Below, in pieces: positions 9,457 to 55,520 of a DNA stretch of 64,000 bases. Positions within the stretch are counted from its first letter, which is position 1, and each line of letters starts with the position of its first letter. The stretch is taken from the NCBI GenBank assembly GCA_943356525.1, contig CALRFG010000006.1:4024-68023 (forward strand), written 5' to 3'. A program made the position numbers and the translations under genes. The notes beneath the pieces were generated by a model, which made no database searches, was not told where the DNA came from, and saw nothing but the letters and a program-made list of their open reading frames with translations. The DNA is from Candidatus Nomurabacteria bacterium (GTDB lineage Bacteria > Patescibacteriota > Minisyncoccia > Phycocordibacterales > CAIZLB01).

Positions 9457-11338
9457 TTATAAATCTATTATACCATAGGGCAAGCATTAATAAAGTAAAG
9501 ATTCTGCGACCTATAAATTTATCATTTAAATTTCTTTTTGTGAATAAATCTTTTATAAATCCCATATTACATATTTCTTGTATCAGTTTATTTTCCAAAA
9601 TAATACTTTGTACTTTTTGACTATCATTCTTTAACCAAGTGTGCCAGGGTGTTGGAAAACCAAGTTTTGGTCTTTTATTTGTTTTATCAGGCATGTCTGA
9701 AGAAAATGCATCACGAAGTATGAATTTTGTTATTCCATTTTTATATTTCCAAGCATCAATCAAACCTGTGGCCACATCAGATACGGCAGTATCCAGAAAT
9801 GGCACACGAAGTTCAAGAGAGTTTGCCATAGTCATCTTATCAGCTTTTTGTAAAATATCCCCTCTCATCCAGTTATGTATATCTGCAAATTGCATATACT
9901 CTGATTCTGAAAGTTTTGTTAAATCTTGATCTTGTAAGTCTAGTCTTGACGTCAAGTCTTGACGAGAATAGTTTTTGAAAAGTTTCTCTTTTTCTGACTC
10001 TTTGAAAATGTTTGCGTTCCCTAAATAACGGCCACGGACTGGAGTAAGTGCACGATTTAAAAATGATACACCTGGAAACTGGGCAAAAACTGGAAACATT
10101 TTGACCGTAAAATTTACAATATCTTGTATAGGTGATAAAAATATTTTTTTAAACCAAACCGGCTGTTGAGATATAAGCTGTATGTATCTATTATGTGGTT
10201 CTTGATATATCCCATATCCTCCAAATAATTCATCAGCACCCTCACCAGACATAACAACTTTAACATCTTTTACAACTTCACGAGACAGTAAGAAAAGCGA
10301 TATTGCAGATGGATCAGCTATAGGCTCATCAAAATACCAAACACATTTTTCAAGAGACTCAAAATAGTCCTCAAAAGTAACGATGATTTCCTTATGGTCT
10401 GATTTTATAAACCCAGCAAATTCTTTTACGTCAGATATCTCAGAATCCAAGTCTTTAAAACCTATGGTATATGTTTTAAGATTTTTACCTTGAGACTGAA
10501 GCTCACGTTGTGCCAGCATAGCAATAATAGATGAATCAACACCGGAAGATAAAAATGAAGCAACAGGAACGTCCGCAATCATATGATGCTTAACAGAGTC
10601 TATCATAACTTTTTTTATCTCATCGCGTGATTTTTCATAATCAGTATCTCGATCGTCGCGAAAATTCCATTGCCAGTATTTTTCTATAGAGTATGCACCA
10701 GTTTCTAGGTCAACTGTTAGCGAGTGACCTGGTGCTAATTTGAAAATATTTTTGAAAAATGTTTCTGGGTTTGGATTGTATTGAAAAGAAACATAGTCAT
10801 AAATGTAGTTAATATTGACATCGCGTTTGATATTTTTATCTTCAAGAATAGATTTTATTTCTGAAGCGAATGCTGAAATTTTTTCATCTTGTAAAGAATA
10901 ATAAAGTGGTTTTATTCCAAAATGATCACGAGCTATAAAAAGTTTATTTCTTCTTTTGTCATGTATAGAGAATACAAACATACCGCGCAGTTTTTTAGGA
11001 AGTTCTGTTCCCCATTCTTCATAGCCATGTACTAGTGTTTCTGTGTCTGACTGAGTTTTAAAAATATGATTTTTATTTTCCAACTCTTTACGAAGTTCAA
11101 GGTGATTGTAAATCTCGCCATTGAAAACCACAGTTATAGTTTGATCCTCGTTCGAGATTGGTTGCTTACCGTGAGCTATATCGATGATGGAAAGACGTCT
11201 CATACCCATAGAAACACCTTCGGTGAAAAACATACCATCGTCATCTGGTCCACGGTGTATGATGCAGTCGAGGGATCGTTTTAAAAGATCTCGGTCCTGA
11301 ATGCTTTTATAATTGATGAATCCAGATATACCACACAT
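9443..11338 (-). CDS. asnB: Asparagine synthetase (glutamine-hydrolysing), AsnB
   Basis: N-terminal MCGISGF class-II amidotransferase nucleophile. PP-loop SGGVDSS. Confidence 0.9.
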   Translation of the reverse strand: MCGISGFINYKSIQDRDLLKRSLDCIIHRGPDDDGMFFTEGVSMGMRRLSIIDIAHGKQPISNEDQTITVVFNGEIYNHLELRKELENKNHIFKTQSDTETLVHGYEEWGTELPKKLRGMFVFSIHDKRRNKLFIARDHFGIKPLYYSLQDEKISAFASEIKSILEDKNIKRDVNINYIYDYVSFQYNPNPETFFKNIFKLAPGHSLTVDLETGAYSIEKYWQWNFRDDRDTDYEKSRDEIKKVMIDSVKHHMIADVPVASFLSSGVDSSIIAMLAQRELQSQGKNLKTYTIGFKDLDSEISDVKEFAGFIKSDHKEIIVTFEDYFESLEKCVWYFDEPIADPSAISLFLLSREVVKDVKVVMSGEGADELFGGYGIYQEPHNRYIQLISQQPVWFKKIFLSPIQDIVNFTVKMFPVFAQFPGVSFLNRALTPVRGRYLGNANIFKESEKEKLFKNYSRQDLTSRLDLQDQDLTKLSESEYMQFADIHNWMRGDILQKADKMTMANSLELRVPFLDTAVSDVATGLIDAWKYKNGITKFILRDAFSSDMPDKTNKRPKLGFPTPWHTWLKNDSQKVQSIILENKLIQEICNMGFIKDLFTKRNLNDKFIGRRIFTLLMLALWYNRFINEEK

Positions 11339-14052: not shown

Positions 14053-16275
14053 CTATTTAATCACTCCTCTAGTTAATGGACCGAAGAACCCGACGGCAGG
14101 GGTGATCTTCATAGCTTTTTGAAACTTTATCAGTGCTGCCTTTGTTGCGGGTCCGAAGAGGCCGGTTTCCTTGCCTTTAGATCCGACGCCTGACAGAGCT
14201 ATGATGAATCCTTTTGAGTTTAGGTATTGCTGTAATCTTTTCACATCATCCCCTTTCGCACCTTGAGTGAGGGATCGTGAGAATGGCATATAAGCCGTCA
14301 CAGAAGTGGAAGATGCTACTGAGCTAGGTAGTAGTGATGCAGGTACAAATCTAATACCTGATGAAGAACCAGGTGTCCAATACGAGACTGAGTTTGCGAT
14401 ATCATTTGGAACTGTTAACATAACAGCTGTTGATGATGCCGATTGACCTCCGATATTAGTAGCAGTTATGTAATACAAATAAGTACTACCTTTTGTAAGA
14501 TTTGATATGCTGTACGTTGTATTGTTTGATGTTGTGGTGGCTATAAGTGCATTTGTATCAGTATTGTAAATATTATATTGAGTAGGTGGTGCGACAGGAT
14601 CAACAACTAAAGGCGCTGACCAAGTCAATGTTGCAGAAGTTCCTGAAACTGAAGCAGATAGGGCTGTCGGGGTATCTGCCGGCGAGGCATACAACGTTGC
14701 TAATATGTTAGATTCGATCATACTTCTAAAAACCTCAGAATGTCCGTAATTGTTAATATGAATCGTGTCAGCAACAAATCCCAAATAACTATCTCCGAAG
14801 GGAGATTTTATGGTTGCATCTGGGTTTGCTACCCTTGAAAACATATCAATACCTCTAGATGTATTACTTTGGGTTGATGTTCCGTATTCTGTTAGAATAG
14901 CATTTGAATACCCTGTTAATAAAAGTAACTTTGGTGCGGTCAAATTTCTTCCTGAAGAGGTTGTTATCCAAACAGGCACATTGGCAGCCCTGGCAGTTTC
15001 AACAATTGTTCTTATATATCCAGTTGATGATGCTATAGGAAAATTAAAATTAGCATCGTTGGAAGTGTAGTTTATTAATATAGCATTAGGATTTTGAGCA
15101 AGTGCAGCCGTTATGTTTCTTGTTGAATCTTCCCCTCCAGAGCCTGTCGGTAGAGATTTATTTGTAGTATATCCAGCTAATGCAAGATTAACAACACTGG
15201 AGCTGGCATTATATAATTTTGCATATTTTTCAAAAAGTCTTACCCAAGAGTTTTCATATATTCCACCTGGTATTGGCATAGAACCATACCCCTCAGCCGT
15301 GGAAGAACCCAACACAACAAACTTTTTTGCAGGACGTACAGATGGAAGAGTTGCTGGTAAAACTGTCACGTCTACATCATCGTAAACAACAGATCCACTG
15401 TTATCAACAGCTGTCATTCTGAAAGTATATTTTCCTGGATAAAGATTACTTACTGTGGTTGATGTAGCTGTAGAGCTCGCAAAAGTTGCATAAGCATCAC
15501 CAAACAAAGACCACGCTTTTGAAGTTATGGTTCCATCAGAATCAGTCACTGTGGAGTTAAGTGTTATAGAGTTTGTTGGATAAGTTATGGTTATATCTGT
15601 ACCAGCATCAACTACTGGGGGTAGGTTTGGTGTATTAGCTATAAGCTCAATAACATTTAGATGGTGATATTGCCCCGCTGATCCTGATGTAAAAGTTGCC
15701 TCTATACTACTTGTTGCACTTGGAGTTATGTTTGATATTTGAGCCGTGTTAGCTGTGTTATTTATAGACTCCAAAGTTGTTGAGGCACTTCCTATGGTCA
15801 TTTTTATCAACCTTGAACCAGAAAATGTTCTAGATGAAAACAATTTAACATTGTATGTATATGCTGGATTAAGACCATTGAAAACAAGCGTACTTTTGAA
15901 GTTACCAATACATCCACCCAAACCATCATATACATAGTCGTTTGTTGCGTTTGCAGGATACCCTGTTGTCGTAACTGTGGGAGCACCGTTACCCATACTC
16001 AATGTTTCGCCTGCACCGCAAGTTGGCGCATCAGAAAAATACATGACAACTGTAGATGTTGCACCCAAAGAGTCAATAAGCGAAGTTATTCCGGTGTATG
16101 GGGTCCCGAGAGAGTTGGGCCAGCTATTCCAATATTCTCCGTTTGTAGGGTTTACTGTGTTTATGTAACCAAAATCTATCTTATATACACCATTGTCCGC
16201 CAAAGCTTCGTTTGATATAAAAGAAATAACAACAAAAAAACATATTGAAAGAAATTTCCTGAAGTATAGACTCAT
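14053..16275 (-). CDS. Secreted multidomain protein: Ig/PKD-like N-region, SGNH/GDSL-type hydrolase, FN3-like, C-terminal peptidoglycan-binding domain
   Basis: Signal peptide. SGNH blocks VVLGSSTAEGYG (block I), TSNDAN (block III), DTIHIN (block V). Ig/FN3-like segments (VTVLPATLP; TALSASVSGTSATLTWSAP). C-terminal PG_binding_1-like GDDVKRLQQYLN..FGPATKAALIKFQ. Terminator hairpin at 13993-14025. Confidence 0.6.
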   Translation of the reverse strand: MSLYFRKFLSICFFVVISFISNEALADNGVYKIDFGYINTVNPTNGEYWNSWPNSLGTPYTGITSLIDSLGATSTVVMYFSDAPTCGAGETLSMGNGAPTVTTTGYPANATNDYVYDGLGGCIGNFKSTLVFNGLNPAYTYNVKLFSSRTFSGSRLIKMTIGSASTTLESINNTANTAQISNITPSATSSIEATFTSGSAGQYHHLNVIELIANTPNLPPVVDAGTDITITYPTNSITLNSTVTDSDGTITSKAWSLFGDAYATFASSTATSTTVSNLYPGKYTFRMTAVDNSGSVVYDDVDVTVLPATLPSVRPAKKFVVLGSSTAEGYGSMPIPGGIYENSWVRLFEKYAKLYNASSSVVNLALAGYTTNKSLPTGSGGEDSTRNITAALAQNPNAILINYTSNDANFNFPIASSTGYIRTIVETARAANVPVWITTSSGRNLTAPKLLLLTGYSNAILTEYGTSTQSNTSRGIDMFSRVANPDATIKSPFGDSYLGFVADTIHINNYGHSEVFRSMIESNILATLYASPADTPTALSASVSGTSATLTWSAPLVVDPVAPPTQYNIYNTDTNALIATTTSNNTTYSISNLTKGSTYLYYITATNIGGQSASSTAVMLTVPNDIANSVSYWTPGSSSGIRFVPASLLPSSVASSTSVTAYMPFSRSLTQGAKGDDVKRLQQYLNSKGFIIALSGVGSKGKETGLFGPATKAALIKFQKAMKITPAVGFFGPLTRGVIK

Positions 16276-16354: not shown

Positions 16355-16762
16355 TTAACGTTTTGACCACTGTTTACTCTTTCTCGCTTTCTTCAAACCG
16401 AATTTTCTTCTTTCTTTAGCTCTACCATCTCTTGTTAGAAATCCTTCTTTTTTAAGTGGAGCTCTAAGCTCTGCATCAAACACTTCAAGTGCGCGTGCAA
16501 TACCAAGTCTCACTGACTCCGCTTGACCGTTTATACCACCTCCTGAAACTTTAACTGTAATCTCAAAAGATTTATCAGGTAGAGTTTTTACAAGAGATTC
16601 TATAGATAGATTTTGTAATTCTTTAGTTTTAAAATAGTCAGTATGTTCTTTATCATTAACAACTACAGTTGTTTTTGATGAAGGAGTTATACGAACTCTT
16701 GCAGAAGATGTTTTTCTTCTTCCTACCGCTTCATAGTATTTTGATGTTGATTTTGTTGCCAT
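16355..16762 (-). CDS. rpsI: 30S ribosomal protein S9
   Basis: GGGINGQAESVRLGIARAL and C-terminal KKARKSKQWSKR. Confidence 0.95.
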   Translation of the reverse strand: MATKSTSKYYEAVGRRKTSSARVRITPSSKTTVVVNDKEHTDYFKTKELQNLSIESLVKTLPDKSFEITVKVSGGGINGQAESVRLGIARALEVFDAELRAPLKKEGFLTRDGRAKERRKFGLKKARKSKQWSKR

Positions 16763-16785
16763 GGTATTTATTAAATTAAATAGTA

Positions 16786-17136
16786 TTATTTAGTTATTTC
16801 TATATTTAAAAGCATTCTATCTCTAAGTTTGTTTTTTGGTAACATACGAGATACTGCACGAACTATAACTTCCTCTACTCCTTTTCTTTCTAGTAGATGT
16901 CCTAGGAATTCTTTCTTTTGTCCACCTGGATATCCAGAATAGGTTAGATAATATTTCTCATCTTTTTTCTTATCAGTTATATCAAGCTTAGAAGCATTTA
17001 CAACTAAAACCTCTACTGGAGCTACAGTATTTTTTGCAAAGTCTACTGAGTTTTTACCCATAAGAACCACAGCCACTTCTTGTGCTAGAAATCCTAATCT
17101 TTTATTTGTTGCGTCTATTGTGTATTTTTTTATCAT
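16786..17136 (-). CDS. rplM: 50S ribosomal protein L13
   Basis: N-terminal KKYTIDATNKRLGFLAQEVA. Located upstream of rpsI. Confidence 0.9.
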   Translation of the reverse strand: MIKKYTIDATNKRLGFLAQEVAVVLMGKNSVDFAKNTVAPVEVLVVNASKLDITDKKKDEKYYLTYSGYPGGQKKEFLGHLLERKGVEEVIVRAVSRMLPKNKLRDRMLLNIEITK

Positions 17137-17149
17137 TTTATTATATTTA

Positions 17150-17500
17150 TTATACTAATTCTATAACAGCCATAAATGCTCCGTCAGCTTGTCTTTGACC
17201 TGTTTTAATAATTCTTGTATAACCACCATTTCTATCTATGTACTTTGGAGCTATCTCTGAAAACAATTTTCCAACTATATCGTTGTTTGCCATTCTTTTA
17301 AGAACATCACGTCTTGACGCAACTGTATCAACTCTAGCTTTTGTTATAAAATCTTCAGCATAAGGTCTAAGTTCTTTAGCTTTTGCCAATGTAGTTTGGA
17401 TTTTGCCATGTAGGAAAAATTCACGTACCAAAGATCTAATCAAAGCTTTTCTTTGATTTCTTCCTCTATTGAATCTTCTGTTTGCGTTGTGATGTCTCAT
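17150..17500 (-). CDS. rplQ: 50S ribosomal protein L17
   Basis: MRHHNANRRFNRGRNQRKALIRSL. Located downstream of rpoA. Confidence 0.95.
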   Translation of the reverse strand: MRHHNANRRFNRGRNQRKALIRSLVREFFLHGKIQTTLAKAKELRPYAEDFITKARVDTVASRRDVLKRMANNDIVGKLFSEIAPKYIDRNGGYTRIIKTGQRQADGAFMAVIELV

Positions 17501-17543
17501 AGTCTTGTAAATATATCTTAAATATTGTTAAAAATCAAGCTTT

Positions 17544-18521
17544 TTATTCTTTTATTGTTAAATCAAATTTTGCTAATATTTCTTTAAGCTCGTCTATCCC
17601 TTTTTTACCCATACCATCAACATCTAGTAGGTCTTTTTCTTTTTTTCGGATCAAACCTCCTATAGTTCTGATATTGGCTTCGATAAGTGCATTTATGGTT
17701 CTTTGACTTATTTCAAGTGACTCAATACGAGTTTTTAAAACATCATCTAGAACATCTTTATCTAGCTTATTTTCTTCACTTTCTTTATCATCTTCTTTCT
17801 TACCTTCAACCTCTTCTTTTACAACCTCAATATCTTGAAAATCAATAATAGCTTTTAGTTGATATATCATGATTTCGATTGATTTCTCTAAAGCCTTTTT
17901 TGGAGTTATTGATCCGTCTGTTTCTACATTTATAACAAGTCTGTTGAAATCAGTTCTGTCACCAACACGCATTTGATCAACATCATATGATACATTTACT
18001 ATAGGAGAGAAAGCTGCATCTAATGCAATAGACTCTACTGGTACCCTTTCTTTTTGCAATACTTCACGTGATACGTAACCTATACCGTTTGACAGTGTGA
18101 TCTCCATTTGTAGAACAGCGTCTGATTCTGTTATAGTTGCAATATATTGATCAGGAGTAAGAACTTCAACTTGACCAGCAACATCTATATCAGCTGCAGT
18201 AACAGCACCAACACCTTTTTTCTTTAGAGTTAGAACAACTTCATCTCCCGCACTTATAGAAAATTTGATTTTCTTAAGATTTAAAATCATAGAGATAACA
18301 TCTTCTTTTATACCTTTTATAGTAGAAAATTCATGTGGTATACCGTTAATCTTTATAGAAGTTATAGCTGCACCTGGTAGAGATGACAGTATAATACGAC
18401 GAAGAGAGTTTCCTAGTGTATGGCCGTAACCTGGATACAAACCTCCTATCTCATAACTTCCTTTATTACCATCTTCTTTTATTATTTTTGGCTTTGACGG
18501 TGATACTATTGATGTGTTCAT
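17544..18521 (-). CDS. rpoA: DNA-directed RNA polymerase alpha subunit
   Basis: Alpha NTD and CTD. Conserved position between rpsD and rplQ. Confidence 0.95.
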   Translation of the reverse strand: MNTSIVSPSKPKIIKEDGNKGSYEIGGLYPGYGHTLGNSLRRIILSSLPGAAITSIKINGIPHEFSTIKGIKEDVISMILNLKKIKFSISAGDEVVLTLKKKGVGAVTAADIDVAGQVEVLTPDQYIATITESDAVLQMEITLSNGIGYVSREVLQKERVPVESIALDAAFSPIVNVSYDVDQMRVGDRTDFNRLVINVETDGSITPKKALEKSIEIMIYQLKAIIDFQDIEVVKEEVEGKKEDDKESEENKLDKDVLDDVLKTRIESLEISQRTINALIEANIRTIGGLIRKKEKDLLDVDGMGKKGIDELKEILAKFDLTIKE

Positions 18522-18567
18522 AATTTTGTTTTTATTTTTATTTAAATTAAGTAACTATTAATTTATC

Positions 18568-19176
18568 TTATCTCTTTGAGAACTCTATCACTTGACCTAG
18601 ATCAAATAATACATCTTGTCCTGTCAGTGTCGGCATTTTCAAAACTTTTCCTGTCATTTTATCTGTATCAAATGATAACCAATCTTGTACTGTATTAGTT
18701 TTATTTCTTTCCGCAACTTCTGCAAAAGTTTTAGTTTTCTTACTTCCTTCACGCACCGCTATAATATCACCTTCCTTAACAACAGCTGAAGGAATAGTAG
18801 TTTTTACACCGTTCAATGTTATATGACCATGTGAAACAATTTGTCTTGCAAAACGTCTAGTGTTTGACAAACCCATACGATAAACAACGTTGTCCAATCT
18901 TGTTTCTAGTTTCTTATATAAATCATCTGGGGCGTGAATAGTTTTAGAGTCAATAACTTGTTTTATGTATTTTCCAAATTGTCCAGCTGTAATACCATAT
19001 GTAAATCTAGCTTTTTGCTTTTCAATCAACTGAAGACCATAAGAAGAAACGTTTTTCTTTCCTTTTTTACCCTTTGGAGCGTTTTCTAGTTTAAGTCTAA
19101 ATTTTTGAGTTTGAGTTTTCTCAAAAATTGGGGCACCTAATCTTTTAGCTATTTTATATTTTGGACCGATTTTCAT
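18568..19176 (-). CDS. rpsD: 30S ribosomal protein S4
   Basis: S4 N-terminus and S4 RNA-binding domain. Conserved position. Confidence 0.95.
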   Translation of the reverse strand: MKIGPKYKIAKRLGAPIFEKTQTQKFRLKLENAPKGKKGKKNVSSYGLQLIEKQKARFTYGITAGQFGKYIKQVIDSKTIHAPDDLYKKLETRLDNVVYRMGLSNTRRFARQIVSHGHITLNGVKTTIPSAVVKEGDIIAVREGSKKTKTFAEVAERNKTNTVQDWLSFDTDKMTGKVLKMPTLTGQDVLFDLGQVIEFSKR

Positions 19177-19220
19177 ATTTGTTTAATTTATTATTATAAT
19201 TATTTAAATGACTATGTTGA

Positions 19221-19637
19221 CTAGATTCTTCTAGGCTTCTTAGGTTTAGGACCATTGTGAGGCACAGGAGTTCTGTCTTTTATAGTATCTATTGCAATAC
19301 CTTTAGATATAAATGATCTAACTACTGATTCACGGCCTGAACCTGTTCCTTTTATAACAACACCCACTTCTTTAACACCCATCATTATAGCTTTGTCAGC
19401 TAGAACTTCACCAATCTTTGCAGCTGCGAATGGTGTACCTTTTTTAGCACCATTGAAACCAAGTGAACCTGATGAAGAAGATGCTACCGGATTTCCTTTT
19501 TCGTCTGTAAGTACAACTTTAGTATTGTTATATGTAGATTGTATGTTTAAAACAGCATAAGCCATTTTTCTTTTACTTAGCTTGTTTGCAGATGTTTTTG
19601 CATCTTTTGCTGTTTTTTTAACTATTTTTTTTGCCAT
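19221..19637 (-). CDS. rpsK: 30S ribosomal protein S11
   Basis: S11 family sequence. C-terminal PHNGPKPKKPRRI. Confidence 0.95.
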   Translation of the reverse strand: MAKKIVKKTAKDAKTSANKLSKRKMAYAVLNIQSTYNNTKVVLTDEKGNPVASSSSGSLGFNGAKKGTPFAAAKIGEVLADKAIMMGVKEVGVVIKGTGSGRESVVRSFISKGIAIDTIKDRTPVPHNGPKPKKPRRI

Positions 19638-19675
19638 GATATTGAATATTAATATTAATTATTTGTGTCTATTTT

Positions 19676-20053
19676 TTATTTTTTAGTCTCTTTCTTTTTA
19701 CCAGAACCCATAGTCTTTTTAACACCCTTCAGAGTACGTGCATTTGACTTTGTTCTTTGTCCACGAACAGGTAATCTTTTTGTATGTCTAACACCTCTAT
19801 ATGATTTTATATCTTTCAATCTCTTTATATTTGTACCAATCTCTCTTTTTAAATCAGCTTCGAGTTTAAAAACTTCGATTTCTGTACGAATTGTATTTTC
19901 CTCTTCAATTGTTAATTCTTTTGGTTTTCTACCATACTCTATACCAGCTTTATCCAATATAGTATGAGCACGTGACCTTCCTATACCGAAAACAGCAGTT
20001 AAAGCCATTTCTATTCTTTGATTATCGTTAAGATTTATACCTAGTATACGCAT
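19676..20053 (-). CDS. rpsM: 30S ribosomal protein S13
   Basis: MRILGINLNDNQRIEMALTAVFGIGRSRA. Confidence 0.95.
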   Translation of the reverse strand: MRILGINLNDNQRIEMALTAVFGIGRSRAHTILDKAGIEYGRKPKELTIEEENTIRTEIEVFKLEADLKREIGTNIKRLKDIKSYRGVRHTKRLPVRGQRTKSNARTLKGVKKTMGSGKKKETKK

Positions 20054-20133
20054 GAAATTGTTTAGTTTTGTTGAATTTTGTTAATTAATAAATAGTAAGA
20101 AAAGCATAGCACAAATAATATTGGCAATCAAGT

Positions 20134-21186
20134 TTATTTTTCGGCTATTACATGATATTTACCTGATGAATCCTTTTTAAAGGCAGAAGAGTTTTGTAAA
20201 TTAACCAATATAGTGTTCTCTTTTACATATCTCTCTTTCATAACTTTATCAAATATCTCCTCTCTTGTCATGGGACCGTTTTTATTTAACACTTTAACTA
20301 TAACGTCTTTTACTACACCTGAGACATAACCCCATTCTGCCAAGGCGTATAGACCTCGTCCAACGAGAACAAATCTATTATCTTTTATAAGCTCATTGTG
20401 AGTAGTAGCTTCATGTGCTCTTTTACCAAATACACTTTGTATCAATTTAGCTATTTCTTTGAAGTGAACAGGTGACCCATGTTTTCTCATGGCAAGGTAT
20501 GCATAATCTCTTATACCTTTAACTTTCACATTAGTAGACGCTGACTTGCCCCATTCACCTAAGGGGTTTTTATCAATATGTTTTGATATACGTAGCCATC
20601 TTTTTGATATTTCGTCATTTTTCAGCTCTTCTGATATATCTTTAACGTTATCCATGAACGCTTTTATCATTTCATTTTCTGGTATTAATGAATTATCATC
20701 CAAGTTTACATAAAGCTTCTTAAGTGCGTCATGTATCTTTTTTGATAAATCAGAGTCAACGTGCCATCTGTGGTGAAACTCCTCAGTTTCTTTTTCTTTC
20801 TTAAATTCATCACCTATTATCAATAAAAAATGATAATGATTTTGTGTTGATTCGTCACGAGATAAATGGTTTAACAAATCATGCTCGGCCATAATACCTC
20901 CAATCTTTTTAATATATAGAGCCAATTCTTCGAAAACCTTAGCTTCTTCCTTAAAGACTGTAGACTTACGTATTGTAATGATGGAATTAGCTTCTATCTG
21001 TCTAACTCTTTCTCGGGTTATATCATAATTTTCTCCAATAGCCTCAAGTGTCATTTTTTCAATATTTTTATCAAGACCGAAACGATGTGAAATAATTACC
21101 CTTGAACGTTCAGGTATAGCTGATAATAATTTTTTAGTTACATTTTTCACTTTAAATGAAAATGTAGGTGTTGAAGTATTTACCAT
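20134..21186 (-). CDS. Protein with N-terminal sigma-70 region 4 HTH domain and C-terminal HARE-HTH-like (RNAP delta-like) domain
   Basis: N-terminal LSAIPERSRVIISHRFGLDKN..MTLEAIGENYDITRERVRQIEANSI matches RpoD region 4.2 closely. C-terminal FVLVGRGLYALAEWGY resembles the HARE-HTH G..WGL..W signature. Embedded in the ribosomal alpha operon, immediately upstream of rpsM. Confidence 0.5.
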   Translation of the reverse strand: MVNTSTPTFSFKVKNVTKKLLSAIPERSRVIISHRFGLDKNIEKMTLEAIGENYDITRERVRQIEANSIITIRKSTVFKEEAKVFEELALYIKKIGGIMAEHDLLNHLSRDESTQNHYHFLLIIGDEFKKEKETEEFHHRWHVDSDLSKKIHDALKKLYVNLDDNSLIPENEMIKAFMDNVKDISEELKNDEISKRWLRISKHIDKNPLGEWGKSASTNVKVKGIRDYAYLAMRKHGSPVHFKEIAKLIQSVFGKRAHEATTHNELIKDNRFVLVGRGLYALAEWGYVSGVVKDVIVKVLNKNGPMTREEIFDKVMKERYVKENTILVNLQNSSAFKKDSSGKYHVIAEK

Positions 21187-21647
21187 AATGTTTTTACATT
21201 TTTATCATATTTGTTGATATAAGTCAAATCTAGGTCAAGTGTTTTGTCAAGGACGTCGTAAGTTTTGGTTTCAAGGACATATAAGACATTGCCTTGTGGA
21301 TAAAAGACATTTGGATAAGTATCGGGTCGAATGTCCTTTAAAACGAAGTCCAAACTTAGATCTTTTTTAAACCAATATACATTTATAGGAAAATTCATAT
21401 CTTTCATCCATATACCAGCCTTATACTCTTTATCAAAAATAAACAGCATTCCAAACCCTGGGAATAAGAACTTTTTGCCCGACAGACCTTTGATTCTTTC
21501 ATCTTCATTATCTGCTATTTTAACGACCAAATTTTTACTCTTGCCTTCTCCGTTTTTTAATATCAAAAGACCATATTGATGATTAAACGTTAAAGAACAT
21601 ATTATTATAAAACTTAGCAAAAATCTCATATATTCATTATAAAACAA
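21180..21647 (-). CDS. DUF192-family protein
   Basis: N-terminal signal/TM segment. Characteristic ERIKGLSG..GMLFIFDKEYKAGIWMKDMNFPIN motifs (GLM / GMLF / FWMK pattern). Confidence 0.6.
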   Translation of the reverse strand: MFYNEYMRFLLSFIIICSLTFNHQYGLLILKNGEGKSKNLVVKIADNEDERIKGLSGKKFLFPGFGMLFIFDKEYKAGIWMKDMNFPINVYWFKKDLSLDFVLKDIRPDTYPNVFYPQGNVLYVLETKTYDVLDKTLDLDLTYINKYDKNVKTLW

Positions 21648-21658
21648 AAAACAAGGTT

Positions 21659-21781
21659 TTACCCTTGTTTTGCGTTTCGTTTACGATTGGCCTTATTTAT
21701 ACGATATAGATGTTTTCCACGACGCACAATAAACTCCCCTTGGCGAAGGTCTGCTTTTTTAAGTGAAGATAATAATTTCAT
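21659..21781 (-). CDS. rpmJ: 50S ribosomal protein L36, non-zinc (YkgO-like) form; absent from the ORF track (<60 aa)
   Basis: Hand translation gives MKLLSSLKKADLRQGEFIVRRGKHLYRINKANRKRNAKQG. This matches the Cys-less L36 paralog pattern [35 protein letters not shown]. ATG at 21781-21779, TAA at 21661-21659. Confidence 0.75.
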   Translation of the reverse strand: MKLLSSLKKADLRQGEFIVRRGKHLYRINKANRKRNAKQG

Positions 21782-21832: not shown

Positions 21833-22312
21833 CTACCTAGTAACAGATATATCTGGCTGTATTTCACCTGCAGCAGATATTGTAATTCTACCTCCTGTAT
21901 CTACATATAATGAATAGCCGGTAAAGTAATCATCTTCATTTATGTAATAGGCTGAAGTGTTTCCTGGCTCATGAGGAAGTTTTGGTAAATATTCAGGTAT
22001 CAAACAGTCAGCAAGATTTATACCATCTATTGATAATCCTGATGATATGCCGTAGTGAATACCTTGTGGTAGAGTTCTAACCGTACCATCACAAAAAACC
22101 ATACCTTCGTGATCAGCAATATTTTGCCCTATGGCATTCAATATAGTGTTTACATTGGCTACACGTTGAGAATCACGAGCTTGTTTAAACTGACGTGAAG
22201 GGTTTACAGCCACAAGTACAACGGTAGCAAGTATACCGATGATACCTATAACCACCAGTATTTCAATAAGAGTAAAACCTTTTTGTTTTATTTGTTTTTT
22301 ATTTATATTCAT
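21833..22312 (-). CDS. Type IV pilin / pseudopilin (prepilin with class III signal)
   Basis: N-terminal KQKGFTLIEILVVIGIIGILATVVLV: the prepilin peptidase site G|FTLIE with Glu at +5. Confidence 0.8.
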   Translation of the reverse strand: MNINKKQIKQKGFTLIEILVVIGIIGILATVVLVAVNPSRQFKQARDSQRVANVNTILNAIGQNIADHEGMVFCDGTVRTLPQGIHYGISSGLSIDGINLADCLIPEYLPKLPHEPGNTSAYYINEDDYFTGYSLYVDTGGRITISAAGEIQPDISVTR

Positions 22313-23027: not shown

Positions 23028-23100
23028 GGGCCCGTAGCTTAGTTGGTAGAGCGCCTCATTTGCACTGAGGAGGTCAGGAGTTCGAATCCCCTCGGGTCCA
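23028..23100 (+). tRNA. tRNA-Ala (anticodon TGC)
   Basis: Cloverleaf folded by hand. Acceptor GGGCCCG/CGGGTCC with the G3:U70 Ala identity pair. Anticodon loop TTTGCAC. No encoded CCA. Confidence 0.88.
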
Positions 23101-23126
23101 CACGCTTATTAGCATTGAATATATAA

Positions 23127-23199
23127 CCGCCTATAGCTCAGTTGGTAGAGCAGTCGCCTCTTAAGCGAACGGTCATAGGTTCAAATCCTATTAGGCGGA
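23127..23199 (+). tRNA. tRNA-Lys (anticodon CTT)
   Basis: Acceptor CCGCCTA/TAGGCGG. D-arm GCTCAGTTGGTAGAGC. Anticodon loop CTCTTAA. T-arm ATAGGTTCAAATCCTAT. Confidence 0.85.
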
Positions 23200-23218
23200 C
23201 AAGGTAGTTATTTAATAT

Positions 23219-23303
23219 GGGCAAGTGGCGGAATTGGTATACGCGCTAGTCTTAGGAACTAGTTCTTCACGGATTGAGGGTTCGAGTCCCTCCTTGCCCA
23301 CCA
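23219..23303 (+). tRNA. tRNA-Leu (anticodon TAG), class II with long variable arm, CCA encoded
   Basis: Acceptor GGGCAAG/CTTGCCC. Anticodon stem CTAGT/ACTAG with loop CTTAGGA. T-arm GAGGGTTCGAGTCCCTC. 3' ACCA. Confidence 0.88.
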
Positions 23304-25454: not shown

Positions 25455-25754
25455 CTAATTATCATCTATATTTAAAACTCTGTTAACATTGTCTTTAGTT
25501 CTATCACTTGTTGGAACACTATTTAATATAAGTTTAAATAAACCAAACACCGATATCATAATAAACATTCCAAACAACCCCCAACCTATATGCAACCTTC
25601 CTTCTTTTATTTTTCCTGGATCTGATTGTGATTTATATATATATTCAAAAACTCCATAGATAAAATATATAAATGCTACAGCAAATAATAAAATAATAAT
25701 TGGATTTATAATAATTTGATTTATATTTGACAGTATAGAGTATACTTTTTGCAT
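25455..25754 (-). CDS. Small two-helix membrane protein, paralog E of the VirB2/TrbC-pilin-like family
   Basis: Hydrophobic helix, charged loop (KSQSDPGKIKEGR), then a second helix with GWGLFGMFIMISVFGL. Shares the xWG..V..V.VWGL motif with the neighbouring paralogs. Confidence 0.4.
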   Translation of the reverse strand: MQKVYSILSNINQIIINPIIILLFAVAFIYFIYGVFEYIYKSQSDPGKIKEGRLHIGWGLFGMFIMISVFGLFKLILNSVPTSDRTKDNVNRVLNIDDN

Positions 25755-25830
25755 ATAACATAATCATACAATAAAAAAAGACTTGAGGCTATAAACCTCA
25801 AATCTTTTTTATTAAACTAACTAAAGAAAT

Positions 25831-26220
25831 CTATCTTGAAGGAGGGGTAGCGTAAGGAGCTTGTTGTACTGGGACAGCAGGTGCTACTGGTATATTTGAG
25901 TTATCAAGGTTAAATGATCCTCTCAAAAGGTTTACAAGTCCCCAAACTGACACCATAACAAATAATGCAACTACACCCCACAATATATATTTTCCAGCCT
26001 CTGCCCTATCTGCCCCGTCTTTTCCTCCTAGGAAAAATCTTTTCACTATACCAAGTAAAAATAATACAAGTGCTGCCAATATAAGAAGTGGTAATGCACG
26101 TCCTGCTATGTATATAACCCAGTTAAGTAAGCCATCAATAGTTCTAGCTATAGGGGCTTCTGTTTGAGCAAGAACAAGAGCTGGTGCAAATGTTGCTAAA
26201 AGTGATAATATTTTTTTCAT
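25831..26220 (-). CDS. Small secreted two-helix protein, paralog D (VirB2/TrbC-pilin-like topology)
   Basis: Signal peptide MKKILSLLATFAPALVLAQ. Helix 1, loop KRFFLGGKDGADRAEAGKY, helix 2 ILWGVVALFVMVSVWGLVNLL. Confidence 0.45.
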   Translation of the reverse strand: MKKILSLLATFAPALVLAQTEAPIARTIDGLLNWVIYIAGRALPLLILAALVLFLLGIVKRFFLGGKDGADRAEAGKYILWGVVALFVMVSVWGLVNLLRGSFNLDNSNIPVAPAVPVQQAPYATPPSR

Positions 26221-26274
26221 GTTTTTTTTGTAAATTTATGATTTTATTTAATTTATAATTATGTTTTTATTATA

Positions 26275-26829
26275 CTACTTTAGTTGTGGAACAATCAAGT
26301 TACCACTGCCAAATAAAGTAAATTGAAGTATTCTAACAAGTCCCCAAACAGACACCATAACAAAGAGTGATACAATACCCCAGAACATAAACTTTCTAGC
26401 TTGCTCGCGAGCTTCTGGTTTTTGTCCATCAACAAAAGATAGTCTTAGTATTCCATACAGGAACATAACCAAAGCTGCTCCGATGATAACGTAAACAAGC
26501 TGATTCATGATTCCAACTAGCCATAAAACAACACCCTCGAGAGAAAGTTTTGGTACACCACTAGCTCCAGGAGTATAGTTTGGTTTTTGATTTAGTTCTG
26601 AATATTCACCTCTGTTTAAACCAGCACCTAAAGCGCTGTTACCGTCACCACCACCCATCATAATGTTTGCATCATATGAATCAGCTCCTCCACCAAACAT
26701 AGAGGAATCAGCTCCTCCACCAAACATAGAGGAATCAGCTCCTCCACCGTTATCAAAAGCATCCTCTATAGACTGTGCCCCGGCTCCAACCCCACTCAAC
26801 ATAATCATTATTATTAAAATTTTTTTCAT
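26275..26829 (-). CDS. Small secreted two-helix protein, paralog C, with Gly-rich GGGADSSMF tandem repeats
   Basis: Signal peptide. Repeats, then the same two-helix core (FMFWGIVSLFVMVSVWGLVRIL). Confidence 0.45.
   Translation of the reverse strand: MKKILIIMIMLSGVGAGAQSIEDAFDNGGGADSSMFGGGADSSMFGGGADSYDANIMMGGGDGNSALGAGLNRGEYSELNQKPNYTPGASGVPKLSLEGVVLWLVGIMNQLVYVIIGAALVMFLYGILRLSFVDGQKPEAREQARKFMFWGIVSLFVMVSVWGLVRILQFTLFGSGNLIVPQLK
26680..26749. repeat. 27-bp tandem repeat (about 2.6 copies) inside paralog C, encoding GGGADSSMF
   Basis: Unit ATCAGCTCCTCCACCAAACATAGAGGA repeated head-to-tail at 26680, 26707 and partially at 26734. Confidence 0.7.
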
Positions 26830-26856
26830 ATTTATATTATTATATTTAATTATTAT

Positions 26857-27234
26857 TTATTTTCCTTTGAATACCTCTTTAACTGTATCACCTATACCCA
26901 GAGCTAAAACCTCTGCTGTCAATATAAGCGCAGCACCTACAAGACCCCAAAGTAATGCATTCTGGGCTTTTTTAAGTTTTGCAGGATCACCTTTTGCAGT
27001 AACAAACATAAAACCTGCATACAATAGATATAACGTTGCGACCATTATCATTATAGTTTGAGCTACATCTAAAATATTCATAAAGATAGTTCTTAAGTCA
27101 GTACCTCCTGCTGTACCATCGCCTATAGGTGGAGTTAAAAAACCGTCTCCTCTAGTTTGTTTTGTCTGAGCAAACATAAAAACCGGTGTAGTTATTGTAA
27201 TAAATGCAATAATTTTTTGAATATTTTTTTTCAT
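26857..27234 (-). CDS. Small secreted two-helix protein, paralog B
   Basis: Signal peptide MKKNIQKIIAFITITTPVFMFAQ. Two hydrophobic helices separated by KGDPAKLKKAQN, with WGLVGAALIL. Confidence 0.45.
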   Translation of the reverse strand: MKKNIQKIIAFITITTPVFMFAQTKQTRGDGFLTPPIGDGTAGGTDLRTIFMNILDVAQTIMIMVATLYLLYAGFMFVTAKGDPAKLKKAQNALLWGLVGAALILTAEVLALGIGDTVKEVFKGK

Positions 27235-27254
27235 ATTTGTATTATACTTTAAGT

Positions 27255-27599
27255 TTATCTTTTAGGTAATGAATCCTGTCTAAATTCTGCATTTACACCA
27301 AGACTATCCAATGCAAATTCAACTATATAATAAGCACCTATTAACAAAATCATTCCAATAACTATATTTAAAAATATACTTTTAGCGCGACTACGTGACT
27401 GAGGAGAACCTTCACCTTTTACTAAAACAAAACCTGCATAAAATATCATAATTGTGGCAATAAAAACACCTAGCAATATAATATTTTGCAATAACTCATT
27501 TATAATGGGACCTAAATCTTTCCAACCGCAACCACCTAAATAAGGATCAGCTTTTTCCCCATTTCCAAAACATACGGATAAACTTTCAAATAATTGCAT
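27255..27599 (-). CDS. Small two-helix membrane protein, paralog A
   Basis: Two hydrophobic helices separated by KGEGSPQSRSRAKS. N-terminus lacks a clear signal peptide, so the start is uncertain. Confidence 0.35.
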   Translation of the reverse strand: MQLFESLSVCFGNGEKADPYLGGCGWKDLGPIINELLQNIILLGVFIATIMIFYAGFVLVKGEGSPQSRSRAKSIFLNIVIGMILLIGAYYIVEFALDSLGVNAEFRQDSLPKR

Positions 27600-31581: not shown

Positions 31582-32823
31582 ATGAATAATACAACAACAA
31601 TACTAAGTATAGAAACAAGCTGTGACGAAACTGGTGTATCTATAGTTCAATACAATAAAACTACACAAAAATACACTGTTTTGTCTGATTCTTTAAATAG
31701 CCAAGTGGAAATCCATAAAGAATTTGGTGGTGTATTCCCTATGGTTGCTAAACGTGAGCATGGTAATAACTTGACAGGACTCTTGACGCATTGTTTAGAG
31801 AATGTTGTGTCAATAGATGGGTCAAGTATTGATAAAAAAAACATAGATTTTGAGCTAATAAATCGTGAAAAAGAATTAACTGAAAAAATACAAACTGAGC
31901 TTGAAAATACATCTTCCTTACTTCTAAAAATTCCAGAGATAGATTATATCGCTGTCACACGTGGTCCTGGACTTGAACCCGCTCTTTGGGTTGGTTTAAG
32001 TTTTGCAAAATTTTTATCAAAACTTTGGCAAAAGCCGATGTTACCGATAAACCACATGGAGGGTCATATTTCATCTGTGCTTTTAGATACTGAATCAAGT
32101 CATATAGAATTTCCTTCTCTTGCCCTACTTATATCGGGTGGGCATACCGAGCTTGTAGATATAGAAAATTGGGGGAAATATAAGATCATTGGTAAAACAC
32201 GTGATGATGCAGTTGGCGAGGCATATGATAAAGCAGCTCGTATACTTGGATTGTCTTATCCTGGTGGACCGTTGATAGCAGCAAAAGCTAAAAAACTGAG
32301 AGAGAGTGCTGTAGAATCAGATATACAGTTTAAAAAAAATCAATTTCTTATAAAACTTCCTCGACCAATGCAACATAGTCAAGATCTTGATCTATCTTTT
32401 TCTGGACTAAAAACTGCTGTTCTTTATATGGTTAGAGATTTGAAAAAAAATCAAAGTGTTGAAAATCTCCCAGAAGAGATAATTGATCTTATATGCCATG
32501 AGTTTGAAAATTCTGTTTCAGAAGTTTTAATCAGTAAGTTAAACTTTGCAAATAAGTCTGGAAATAGAAAATACAAAAATCTCATTGTTGCCGGTGGTGT
32601 AATATCCAATGAATTTTTGAAAGAAAATATACAAAACTGGTGTTTAAAAAATAATATAAATTTTTTGAAACCTGAAAAATCTCTAGCAACTGACAATGCT
32701 GTAATGATAGCTTTGGCTGCAATAGTTGGATTGAATAATAAATATGTAAGTATAATAAATCCAAATGATAAAGCGTTTTTAGAAATAAAACCTGATGGAG
32801 ATTGGTCTTTAAATAATATATAA
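31582..32823 (+). CDS. tsaD: tRNA N6-adenosine threonylcarbamoyltransferase TsaD (Kae1/YgjD family), with insertion
   Basis: ILSIETSCDETGVSIV N-terminus. HMEGHI metal-binding motif. 413 aa, longer than typical. Confidence 0.85.
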   Translation: MNNTTTILSIETSCDETGVSIVQYNKTTQKYTVLSDSLNSQVEIHKEFGGVFPMVAKREHGNNLTGLLTHCLENVVSIDGSSIDKKNIDFELINREKELTEKIQTELENTSSLLLKIPEIDYIAVTRGPGLEPALWVGLSFAKFLSKLWQKPMLPINHMEGHISSVLLDTESSHIEFPSLALLISGGHTELVDIENWGKYKIIGKTRDDAVGEAYDKAARILGLSYPGGPLIAAKAKKLRESAVESDIQFKKNQFLIKLPRPMQHSQDLDLSFSGLKTAVLYMVRDLKKNQSVENLPEEIIDLICHEFENSVSEVLISKLNFANKSGNRKYKNLIVAGGVISNEFLKENIQNWCLKNNINFLKPEKSLATDNAVMIALAAIVGLNNKYVSIINPNDKAFLEIKPDGDWSLNNI

Positions 32824-39921: not shown

Positions 39922-41226
39922 ATGAATAAACTTAAACAAAGGATAAAAGAAAAATGGGGTGAGGCTGGGTTTCAGAGGTATTTTCGGAATACGGGGTGGA
40001 TGTTTGGAGCTAGAGTGTTGACACTTTTAATTAATCTTTTTGTAAGTATATTCATAGCCAAACAGCTTGGACCAGAACAGTATGGTACTTTTTCTTTTAT
40101 AATAAGTTTTGTGAGTATTGCAGGTTTTACCCTATTTGCAATTGATTCACTTGTAATGAAGAGGCTAAATGAAGATAAAGATAGTACTGATAAGATATTA
40201 GGTTCAGCTCTTGCTATAAAGTTTGTAAATAGTTTATTTACCATAACCACAGCAACACTCGCAGGTTTAATTTTTGCAAATACATCAACTACAGTATTGA
40301 TGATATTTGTATATTCAACCTTTACAATATTTCAATCTTTTGGGGTTATAGATTTTTACTTTAAAATAAATGTACAAAATAAACCAATATCAATATTGAG
40401 TATTGTAGTAGTATCACTTTCATCTGTAATCAAGATCGGGATATTATACTATAATCTACCTTTGGTATACCTATTGTTATCTTATGTATTAGATCATATT
40501 ATAGGTGCAATTGGATATATATATTTATACAAAAAATACGTTGGTAGTATTTTCAATTTTAGTGTAGAAAAAAATATTGTAAAAGGTTTAATAATAAAAT
40601 CCTGGCCTTTAACCATATCAGCATTGGCAACCACTATATATATAAGAATTGACCAGATTTTTATAAAAGTTTTACTTGGATCAGAATCACTGGGTTTATA
40701 TGCAATAGCAGTAAGATTCTCGGAAGTATGGTTTATTATATCCGAAGTAATGTGTCTTTCTTTATTGCCTGCAATACTAAATGCAGAAAAAACTAATAAT
40801 GAATTATTTTTAAGCAGAAGTAAGAGGTTGTATAGCCTGTTGTTTTATTCAGCAATAGGTGTATGTATAATAATGTATGTAATTTCACCTATACTTATAA
40901 ATACACTGTACGGTGAAGCCTATAGTCAAAGTGTAAATATCCTGAGACTATATATATGGTCTATAGTAGGATTTTTTATAGCAACAGCTTTAAATCAGTT
41001 TTTGTTTGCCAAAGGTAAACTTAAAACCATTCTTTTTATGAATATCATAGGAATGTCTTTAAGTGTTGCGCTTAACTATATTTTGATACCCATTTTAGGA
41101 ATACAGGGTGCTATTTTGGCAAATATAGTTGCATATACATTGCCATTTATAATAATATTATCTTTAAAAAACATGAGAGAGCAAAGAATTACATTTATCA
41201 AAGCTGTAGTAAACCCTTTTACTTAA
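39922..41226 (+). CDS. Polysaccharide flippase, Wzx/MOP superfamily
   Basis: 434 aa, about 12 TM. Typical oligosaccharide flippase architecture. Confidence 0.6.
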   Translation: MNKLKQRIKEKWGEAGFQRYFRNTGWMFGARVLTLLINLFVSIFIAKQLGPEQYGTFSFIISFVSIAGFTLFAIDSLVMKRLNEDKDSTDKILGSALAIKFVNSLFTITTATLAGLIFANTSTTVLMIFVYSTFTIFQSFGVIDFYFKINVQNKPISILSIVVVSLSSVIKIGILYYNLPLVYLLLSYVLDHIIGAIGYIYLYKKYVGSIFNFSVEKNIVKGLIIKSWPLTISALATTIYIRIDQIFIKVLLGSESLGLYAIAVRFSEVWFIISEVMCLSLLPAILNAEKTNNELFLSRSKRLYSLLFYSAIGVCIIMYVISPILINTLYGEAYSQSVNILRLYIWSIVGFFIATALNQFLFAKGKLKTILFMNIIGMSLSVALNYILIPILGIQGAILANIVAYTLPFIIILSLKNMREQRITFIKAVVNPFT

Positions 41227-41229
41227 AAT

Positions 41230-42297: not shown

Positions 42298-42306
42298 AAT
42301 TAAAAT

Positions 42307-44018: not shown

Positions 44019-44019
44019 A

Positions 44020-44865: not shown

Positions 44866-44904
44866 TATAAAGCAAAACCAAATTTATTAAATAAATACAA
44901 ACTC

Positions 44905-45642: not shown

Positions 45643-45646
45643 ATAT

Positions 45647-46441: not shown

Positions 46442-46445
46442 AAAT

Positions 46446-54031: not shown

Positions 54032-54077
54032 GTTGAGATTATATCAAATTTGAACTTGCTTGTATAACCTACTAAAT

Positions 54078-55496: not shown

Positions 55497-55520
55497 TTTA
55501 TATGTATGATAAATAAAATA

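Follow-up and report, generated by a model that had tools for sequence, protein, structure and literature searches.

Introduction

Much of bacterial diversity belongs to the Patescibacteria, and to our knowledge almost nothing is known about the control of transcription in this group. Here we describe a 350-amino-acid (aa) protein, called SIG, in which a sigma-70 region 4 is joined to four winged helices. It is encoded by the open reading frame (ORF) at 20134-21186 on the minus strand of a 64,000-nucleotide (nt) stretch of a Candidatus Nomurabacteria contig (CALRFG010000006.1); this whole stretch is referred to as the window. Aravind and Iyer reportedly described, in 2012 (Cell Cycle 11:119), bacterial HARE-HTH domains fused to helix-turn-helix domains of sigma regions 3/4 and to the helix-hairpin-helix domains of the C-terminal domain of the polymerase alpha subunit (alpha-CTD), and are said to have predicted that such fusions modulate the binding of RNA polymerase (RNAP) to promoters; this work is older than most Patescibacteria genomes. 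Two-subunit sigma factors exist, such as SigO-RsoA of B. subtilis and gp55/gp33 of T4. DNA motors, in turn, have DNA-recognizing partners such as the winged-helix gamma domain of FtsK and the accessory DNA-binding proteins of coupling proteins.

Domain architecture of SIG

In Pfam searches, residues 20-69 of SIG matched Sigma70_r4 (E 3.5e-11, 42.9 bits, cutoff 24.1), and residues 228-285 matched HARE-HTH (PF05066) in two stretches (E 3.3e-9, 37.4 bits, cutoff 25.9). Both matches are far beyond chance, and they bear out an initial annotation of the window that had proposed a sigma-70 region 4 in the first ~70 aa and a HARE-HTH-like signature at the C-terminus. Among the NCBIfam models, aa 5-76 aligned at the far C-terminal end of RpoD, RpoS, and MzaA, while aa 227-295 came nearest to RNAP delta, at 30.6 bits and thus under the TIGR04567 cutoff of 42. 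A profile of the SIG family run against the PDB matched only region 4 of primary sigma factors and RpoS (E ~1e-20). No sigma region 2 or 3 and no alpha-CTD was detected in SIG by Pfam, NCBIfam, or the PDB profile.

An AlphaFold2 model built on an alignment of 109 sequences reached a predicted local distance difference test (pLDDT) value of 96.8 and a predicted template modeling (pTM) score of 0.88; an earlier model built on 14 close sequences was poor over the HARE region. In the model, sigma region 4 (aa 13-74) is followed by a helical connector (aa 76-94) and by winged helices at approximately aa 98-142, 168-214, 225-282, and 292-346. The domains map to the window as follows:

20965-21150, minus strand: sigma-A-type region 4, aa 13-74, with the recognition helix ITRERVRQIE
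20539-20898, minus strand: two acidic/neutral winged-helix-like units, aa 97-216, modeled with confidence
20332-20514, minus strand: winged helix 1 of the HARE-HTH type, aa 225-285, best conserved of all the domains
20149-20313, minus strand: weaker HARE-HTH-like winged helix 2, aa 292-346, from the topology of the model

Foldseek superposed region 4 of SIG on that of SigA with a root-mean-square deviation of 1.3-1.6 Å over 55-70 residues, and matched the rest of the protein loosely to tandem winged-helix arrays (UFL1/DDRGK1, RPC62, Dcc1, and SelB). The segment of HARE copy 1 alone still scored 28.4 bits against Pfam HARE-HTH, above the cutoff of 25.9. Copy 2 remained below it (18.1 bits, E 0.0037) and has winged-helix topology in the model; the middle units (aa 97-216) gave no significant Pfam match. 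The isoelectric points (pI) were 10.2 for sigma region 4, 9.9 for HARE 1, and 9.5 for HARE 2, against 5.5 and 5.7 for the two middle units, which are also the least conserved part of the protein.

Across the 109 diverse sequences, with a mean column identity of 36%, residues R35, T46, L47, R58, E59, R60, R62, and Q63 of sigma region 4 were invariant. We take these to be the equivalents of R562, T572, L573, R584, E585, R586, R588, and Q589 of sigma70 (sigma70 numbering), which contact the -35 hexamer in the Taq sigma4/-35 DNA structure. In HARE 1, which had a mean top-residue frequency of 0.67, H241, H263, N264, L266, G276, G278, Y280, and L282 were invariant in the same alignment, and the helix T-x-H-N-E-L-I-K-D was as invariant as the contact residues of region 4. 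Judged from its sequence, SIG is by its defining features not a sigma factor, as region 4 is present and region 2 absent. The safest mechanistic statement is that SIG would be a DNA-binding protein of several domains, rigid and with basic ends, in which the module derived from sigma may still read a TTGAC-type hexamer.

Distribution of the SIG family

A word-indexed search with SIG matched at least 8000 clusters. The best 120 of these were 342-357 aa long, except for three fragments, and shared 63-100% identity over 97-100% of the length. In an exhaustive profile search at least 683 clusters at 50% identity were found with E<1e-30, and among the clusters listed the lengths ranged from 320 to 390 aa, except for fragments and one protein of 659 aa. 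SIG is carried by at least 540 GTDB species representatives, and the named carriers belong to Paceibacterota/Parcubacteria lineages (Taylor-, Nomura-, Kaiser-, Campbell-, and Vogelbacteria). An identical protein (P0001) was present on several independent public contigs, and all 109 aligned diverse homologues had a common start point at region 4. Some members bear the NCBI name "sigma factor-like helix-turn-helix DNA-binding protein." As far as our searches show (family name, HARE-HTH with RpoE or with the candidate phyla radiation, DUF8128), the family is catalogued and uncharacterized, with no discussion found in the literature.

In phage and plasmid collections no full-length homologue of SIG was found, only matches of the length of sigma region 4 to sigma factors, and the only match in PADLOC was that of the SIG region 4 to MzaA. 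A mobile-element origin of SIG was rejected on these grounds. Three metagenome-assembled genomes (MAGs) labeled Thermodesulfobacteriota, Spirochaetaceae, and Azotimanducaceae (loci L007, L058, and L072) carry SIG on contigs of 3-11 kb; as these short contigs have typical Paceibacteria synteny, they are probably mis-binned.

That a region 4 occurs by itself might suggest a chance ORF, or what is left of a canonical sigma factor after a frameshift has split it, and this is the sole point in favor of such an origin. A split canonical sigma factor had been raised in the initial annotation as well. SIG, however, came out as a complete gene, and since no homologue has regions 2/3 and the gene upstream encodes a DUF192 protein, with no region 2/3 upstream or in any relative, the frameshift is excluded. 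The many clusters of like length, the common start, the confident model, and the identical protein on independent contigs likewise rule out a chance ORF or sigma remnant, to which we give next to no credence.

The comparisons below cover 80 species loci from GTDB, taken with flanks of 6 kb, and a more distant set of 82 loci made up of 80 metagenome loci, L086, and L087. Labels of this kind (L001-L003, L084, L168, L169, etc.) denote sequenced loci carrying SIG or relatives.

Promoter of the SIG gene and TTGAC repeats

A near-consensus promoter of the SIG gene was predicted inside the DUF192 ORF, in its final 81 nt and past the part that Pfam matches to DUF192. It is composed of:

21198-21250, minus strand: predicted SIG promoter, inside the 3' end of the DUF192 gene
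21250-21245, minus strand: TTGACA
21238-21233, minus strand: TTGACC
21227-21222, minus strand: TTGACT, the -35 element
21207-21206, minus strand: TG
21204-21198, minus strand: -10 element TAAAAA(T)

The three TTGAC repeats are spaced by 11-12 nt. Upstream of the family genes we found the same promoter motif, TTGAC(T/A), a 17-nt spacer, and TGnTAnAAA, and a TTGAC lay at most 100 nt upstream of 130 of 151 SIG family genes, compared with 133 of 1223 other genes of the same loci. Repeats of TTGAC 9-13 nt apart preceded 12 of the 151 family genes and only one of the 1223 others. Three to four phased repeats were kept in L001, L084, L168, and L169, while the reading frame across them differs, suggesting a constraint on the DNA rather than on the protein. 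In the whole window there were six phased TTGAC pairs, compared with 0.47 expected by shuffling, and two of the six are those at the SIG promoter. The other four pairs, 5-8 nt apart, lie in coding regions at 9946-9963 (asnB), 31771-31787 and 31809-31825 (tsaD, twice on opposite strands), and 35043-35058 (secA); they could be internal promoters or SIG binding sites.

The promoters also bear on the idea that SIG is a region 4 detachable from the housekeeping sigma factor: the RpoD of Paceibacteria would lack or under-use its own region 4, and SIG, sitting on the beta flap, would recognize the -35 element in trans. The group-1 type of the SIG region 4, with all -35 contacts invariant, would suit such a role, as would the promoters of these genomes with their canonical TTGAC -35 and 17-nt spacing. 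SIG is, however, without a linker resembling region 3.2, and genes with the annotation of a full RpoD are found in Patescibacteria MAGs. Regions 2-4 of E. coli RpoD, used in tblastn/blastp, detected no sigma region 2 and no rpoD in the window or in ~170 loci. A region 4 acting in trans is thus conceivable and very improbable.

Rate of evolution

SIG is slowly evolving, at about the rate of ribosomal proteins. Between the window and the related locus L084, SIG was 83% identical, compared with 71-82% for RpoA and the ribosomal proteins other than L36:

L36: 87.5%
SIG: 83%
L17: 82%
S13: 80%
S11: 79%
S4: 78%
RpoA: 71%
DUF192: 43%

Across the 80 GTDB species loci, the median identities of SIG and of the proteins encoded around it were:

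TypA: 70%
YchF: 59%
SIG: 57%
MnmA: 49%
LeuS, C-terminal part: 47%
MltG: 39%
DUF8128: 38%

Linkage to rpoA and the alpha operon

In the window, SIG directly precedes the genes from rpsM to rpsI (16355-20053, minus strand). The genes around it are:

21833-22312, minus strand: type IV pilin-like N_methyl protein
21659-21781, minus strand: rpmJ, very probable Cys-free (type B) L36, with Pfam and NCBIfam matches
21648-21671, minus strand: terminator-like hairpin and T-run, a 9-bp stem followed by TTGTTTTATA, overlapping the L36 stop codon
21180-21647, minus strand: DUF192 gene (Pfam DUF192, E 7.6e-15)
20134-21186, minus strand: SIG, complete gene (ORF, Pfam and NCBIfam matches, AlphaFold2 model)
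20054-20133, minus strand: spacer between SIG and rpsM, 80 nt
19676-20053, minus strand: rpsM
19221-19637, minus strand: rpsK
18568-19176, minus strand: rpsD
17544-18521, minus strand: rpoA
17150-17500, minus strand: rplQ
16786-17136, minus strand: rplM
16355-16762, minus strand: rpsI

The DUF192 gene and the 350-aa gene thus lie between rpmJ and rpsM on the minus strand, exactly where the initial annotation had placed them. It had argued from co-transcription with rpoA that the protein may be an RNAP accessory factor, and this argument fails. SIG adjoins rpsM/rpoA only in L001-L003, L084, L168, and L169, that is, at an identity of at least 79%; in the last three (79-85% identity) the order is [PGA_cap-DUF192]-SIG-rpsM-rpsK-rpsD-rpoA, while a relative at 69% identity has ychF...leuS-SIG instead. 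Searches by tblastn/blastp with the proteins of the window found no rpsM, rpsK, rpsD, rpoA, L36, or DUF192 near SIG in any of the 80 GTDB loci or of the 82 more distant loci. A family-wide linkage of SIG to rpoA or ribosomal genes was therefore rejected; what accompanies SIG across the family are genes for DUF8128 proteins and VirD4/TraD-like ATPases. The usual order in Paceibacteria is ychF, DUF5671, leuS (or typA), SIG, a ~415-aa membrane protein, mltG, and mnmA. The adjacency to rpsM/rpoA is a recent, local relocation of SIG together with its promoter, and, being a shallow rearrangement, should not be used for inferring function.

The 80-nt spacer contained no terminator and no Rfam match, and its fold z-score was +0.94. 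A structured RNA or leader between SIG and rpsM was discarded as a candidate, as Rfam at E<=1 found only tRNAs and the fold z-score was unremarkable at that value. A weak promoter-like sequence, TTGATT (20131-20126), N17, TATGCT (20108-20103), lies in the spacer. Read-through from SIG into rpsM-rpoA is predicted to be possible, and it would not be the main regulatory logic of SIG.

An accessory subunit of RNAP might nevertheless be considered, with sigma region 4 docking on the tip of the beta flap, the HARE domains binding polymerase or DNA as in the delta subunit of Gram-positive bacteria, and expression coupled to that of rpoA. Fusions of sigma and HARE-HTH domains have reportedly been predicted by Aravind and Iyer (2012) to be delta-like modulators of polymerase. 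Region 4 of SIG is of the primary-sigma type, HARE 1 has RNAP delta as its nearest NCBIfam model, the protein is conserved at the level of ribosomal proteins, and in this clade no terminator separates it from rpsM-rpoA. The linkage to rpoA, however, is limited to one shallow clade in which SIG has its own promoter, the delta score stays under the family cutoff, and the C-terminal domain is basic and lacks a delta-like acidic tail; moreover, binding to the flap alone does not need invariant DNA-contact residues. The domain fusion, as initially annotated, and the completeness of the gene stand, and the contextual argument from rpoA does not. Domain homology makes an accessory role of SIG possible, but we judge it unlikely, and the case for it is no stronger than that for a factor that binds DNA on its own or for one that works with the ATPase.

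Association with DUF8128 proteins and VirD4-like ATPases

The ~415-aa membrane protein encoded after SIG was homologous to the product of the gene after SIG in distant members of the family (31-34% identity, E 1e-63 to 1e-71). In the distant members this gene carries the precomputed Pfam label DUF8128; a direct Pfam scan of the DUF8128-type proteins gave no match. A DUF8128 homologue follows SIG in 57 of 77 GTDB loci. In the distant subgroups SIG is followed by DUF8128 and then by an ATPase resembling VirD4, TraD, and CedD, with median gaps of 16-18 nt among the three genes: DUF8128 came directly after SIG in 32 of 48 distant loci with enough downstream sequence, and the ATPase was the second gene after SIG in 23 of 39, a count that rises when small ORFs in between are tolerated.

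The ATPase aligned to the TraD, VirD4, and CedD models, starting at its residue 13-27. The matches of its nucleotide-binding domain were weak, with TrwB_AAD_bind at E 3e-6 and TraD at E 1e-11 to 1e-14, far below the cutoffs, and at its C-terminal end it carries a CxxC-x17-CxxC motif. The ATPase is without a hydrophobic segment, and hence without the membrane domain of type IV coupling proteins, while the DUF8128 protein has such a segment at its N-terminus. Of 5,713 VirD4-like homologues in Patescibacteria only 148 are near virB4, and they are possibly exapted; a sigma-like neighbor of these genes is not mentioned (PMC12102498).

By analogy with known motors, SIG might be the DNA-recognition partner in a membrane DNA-translocation module, in which the DUF8128 protein would be the anchor and the ATPase the motor. 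The conserved neighbors give this interpretation the best contextual support: DUF8128 follows SIG in most of the GTDB and distant loci, the ATPase comes next in many of the latter at short median gaps, the putative motor has no membrane anchor of its own and the DUF8128 protein could supply one, and VirD4-like homologues are abundant in Patescibacteria and mostly far from virB4 (PMC12102498). SIG, however, evolves more slowly than DUF8128 (median identity 57% vs 38%) and persists where the genes are separated. Close Paceibacteria do not have the ATPase next to SIG, and in the window SIG has neither of the two partners beside it. Furthermore, an exact -35-reading surface would be unexplained in the adaptor of a pump, and a helix-turn-helix protein encoded by the first gene could simply regulate the operon. 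We regard a translocation partner as rather unlikely.

A hidden Markov model (HMM) built from 66 DUF8128-type proteins found no DUF8128 homologue in the 64-kb window. An ATPase of the family is encoded far from SIG, next to the following genes:

56576-57127, minus strand: frr
55521-56576, minus strand: rseP-like protease
54078-55496, minus strand: D-Ala-D-Ala carboxypeptidase
52274-54031, minus strand: VirD4/TraD-like ATPase, 50-53% identical to the distant SIG-linked ATPases

The 472-aa gene upstream of the ATPase was considered as a DUF8128 candidate and rejected, as it encodes the carboxypeptidase. Several relatives have the order frr, rseP, typA, SIG, and then DUF8128. Because the frr-rseP order is common to the SIG neighborhoods of relatives, 52274-57127 may be the ancestral site that SIG left in the lineage of the window.

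In a further reading, SIG would dock on the beta flap of RNAP in Paceibacteria as a separately regulated, -35-reading subunit that supplies or replaces this recognition for the housekeeping holoenzyme, and its winged helices might tether it to the membrane ATPase formed with DUF8128 and the VirD4-like protein; we would attach only a very small probability to this.

Other features of the window

The window has a G+C content of ~32% and the gene content of a small Patescibacteria chromosome. The L36 gene at 21659-21781, annotated initially as a non-zinc form, encodes 40 aa, among them a single His and not one Cys, and scored 25.9 bits against Pfam Ribosomal_L36 (cutoff 26.1) and 38 bits against the NCBIfam type B L36 (cutoff 70, E 1e-9). 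With an identity of 87.5% in the relatives L084 and L168, the gene is very probably genuine. A promoter-like TTGAAT-N17-TATATT with an upstream TG precedes it at 21819-21791; with this site and the terminator-like hairpin of its own, L36 looks like a nearly separate one-gene unit. Upstream of L36, infA is not present and the pilin-like gene is found instead, so that the whole block already stands apart from the spc operon.

The DUF192 protein (PF02643) scored 55.3 bits (cutoff 27). Gene callers start it at 21629, which gives 149 aa with a hydrophobic N-terminus, and its stop codon region and the start of SIG overlap by 7 nt. In L084 (4504-5979), L168 (3708-4994), and L169 (2540-4006), DUF192 is the C-terminal part of a PGA_cap (CapA-like) fusion of 428-491 aa. 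Only the DUF192 part, of 149-155 aa and with its hydrophobic N-terminus, is left in the window, at 41-43% identity to these fusions. DUF192 is a passenger gene.

A cluster at 25455-27599 (minus strand) encodes small membrane proteins of the T4SS_pilin (VirB2-like) type, four or five paralogues in all. Directly downstream of rpsI, at 14053-16275 (minus strand), a 740-aa secreted protein with PKD, GDSL lipase/acylhydrolase, fibronectin type III, and peptidoglycan-binding domains is encoded. The tRNA genes Ala-TGC, Lys-CTT, and Leu-TAG form a trio at 23028-23303 on the plus strand, between two blocks of minus-strand genes. Finally, a probable surface-glycan cluster lies at 40001-48000, an island of low G+C (0.23-0.28 vs ~0.32 elsewhere) with genes on the same strand; the gene next to it (37719-39884) encodes an O-antigen-ligase-like protein.

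Discussion

We tentatively favor, with somewhat less than even confidence, the interpretation that SIG is a free-standing, TTGAC-reading DNA-binding factor that would act at the level of promoters and also regulate its own gene. SIG is a complete member of a large family of proteins with five domains, found mainly in Paceibacteria/Parcubacteria, in which the domains pack as one rigid body, and it would function as a well-expressed, sequence-specific DNA-binding factor. Its sigma-derived helix-turn-helix may read -35-like TTGAC(A/T) hexamers, while the invariant HARE helix might read the adjacent DNA. Sitting at promoters, its own included, SIG could then occlude or modulate -35 recognition. 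We prefer this interpretation because the DNA-contact residues are invariant, because a consensus promoter of its own, with additional phased TTGAC sites, precedes the gene, and because SIG persists after separation from every neighbor; that SIG binds TTGAC, regulates itself, or affects transcription in any way is what we infer.

Several points weigh against a free-standing promoter factor. The invariant contact residues could serve another ligand, and a perfect -35 within a consensus promoter would be expected of any highly expressed gene as well. The loci with phased repeats are phylogenetically related, which inflates the p-values, and the 80 GTDB loci were picked by their similarity to SIG, so that the comparison of conservation is biased in its favor. 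The conserved operon with DUF8128 and the VirD4-like ATPase, the strongest contextual signal, is unexplained by a purely promoter-directed role.

A family found in hundreds of species keeps, unaltered, the -35-reading surface of the main sigma factor and is without any other sigma feature. If SIG binds -35-like DNA, it would be a candidate for a global promoter-level regulator specific to Patescibacteria. The conserved operon, in turn, gives the unexplained VirD4-like ATPases of Patescibacteria a candidate DNA-binding partner.

Compared with known systems, SIG shares with region 4 of the primary sigma factors (SigA/RpoD) and RpoS the fold, the sequence family, and the recognition helix (I/V)TRER(V/I)RQIE. 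In contrast to these factors it is without regions 1.2, 2, and 3 and the 3.2 linker, and its region 4 is N-terminal and followed by four winged helices. With the RNAP delta subunit (RpoE) of Firmicutes, SIG has in common a HARE-HTH winged helix with the motif ...D.RF....G.Y.L..W. Delta, however, belongs to another phylum and has one N-terminal HARE domain, compared with two C-terminal copies in SIG; while delta ends in an acidic, disordered tail, the C-terminal domain of SIG has a pI of 9.5 and is folded at high pLDDT.

Of the systems with divided sigma functions, SigO-RsoA and T4 gp55/gp33 resemble SIG in that a function like that of sigma region 4 is on a polypeptide apart from region 2; T4 gp33 is not known to bind DNA, whereas SIG keeps the DNA-contact residues. 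The gamma domain of FtsK, Streptomyces TraB, and the accessory proteins of relaxosomes are winged-helix DNA readers working with a motor, and in distant members of the family SIG is encoded close to a VirD4/TraD-like ATPase. Unlike the recognition modules of the FtsK/HerA/VirD4 type, SIG is a separate five-domain protein with a sigma region 4, the ATPase has no membrane domain, and no relaxase is linked.

The fusions that Aravind and Iyer are said to have described in 2012 likewise unite a sigma-type helix-turn-helix and HARE-HTH in one polypeptide, and to this extent such proteins are reportedly already known. SIG differs from them in consisting of sigma region 4, two winged helices, and two HARE domains, with no region 3 or alpha-CTD detected. 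New are the architecture with four winged helices, the invariant residues for contact with the -35, the operon that unites SIG with DUF8128 and a VirD4-like ATPase, the gene's autonomous promoter, rich in TTGAC, and the recognition of the alpha-operon position as a recent relocation.

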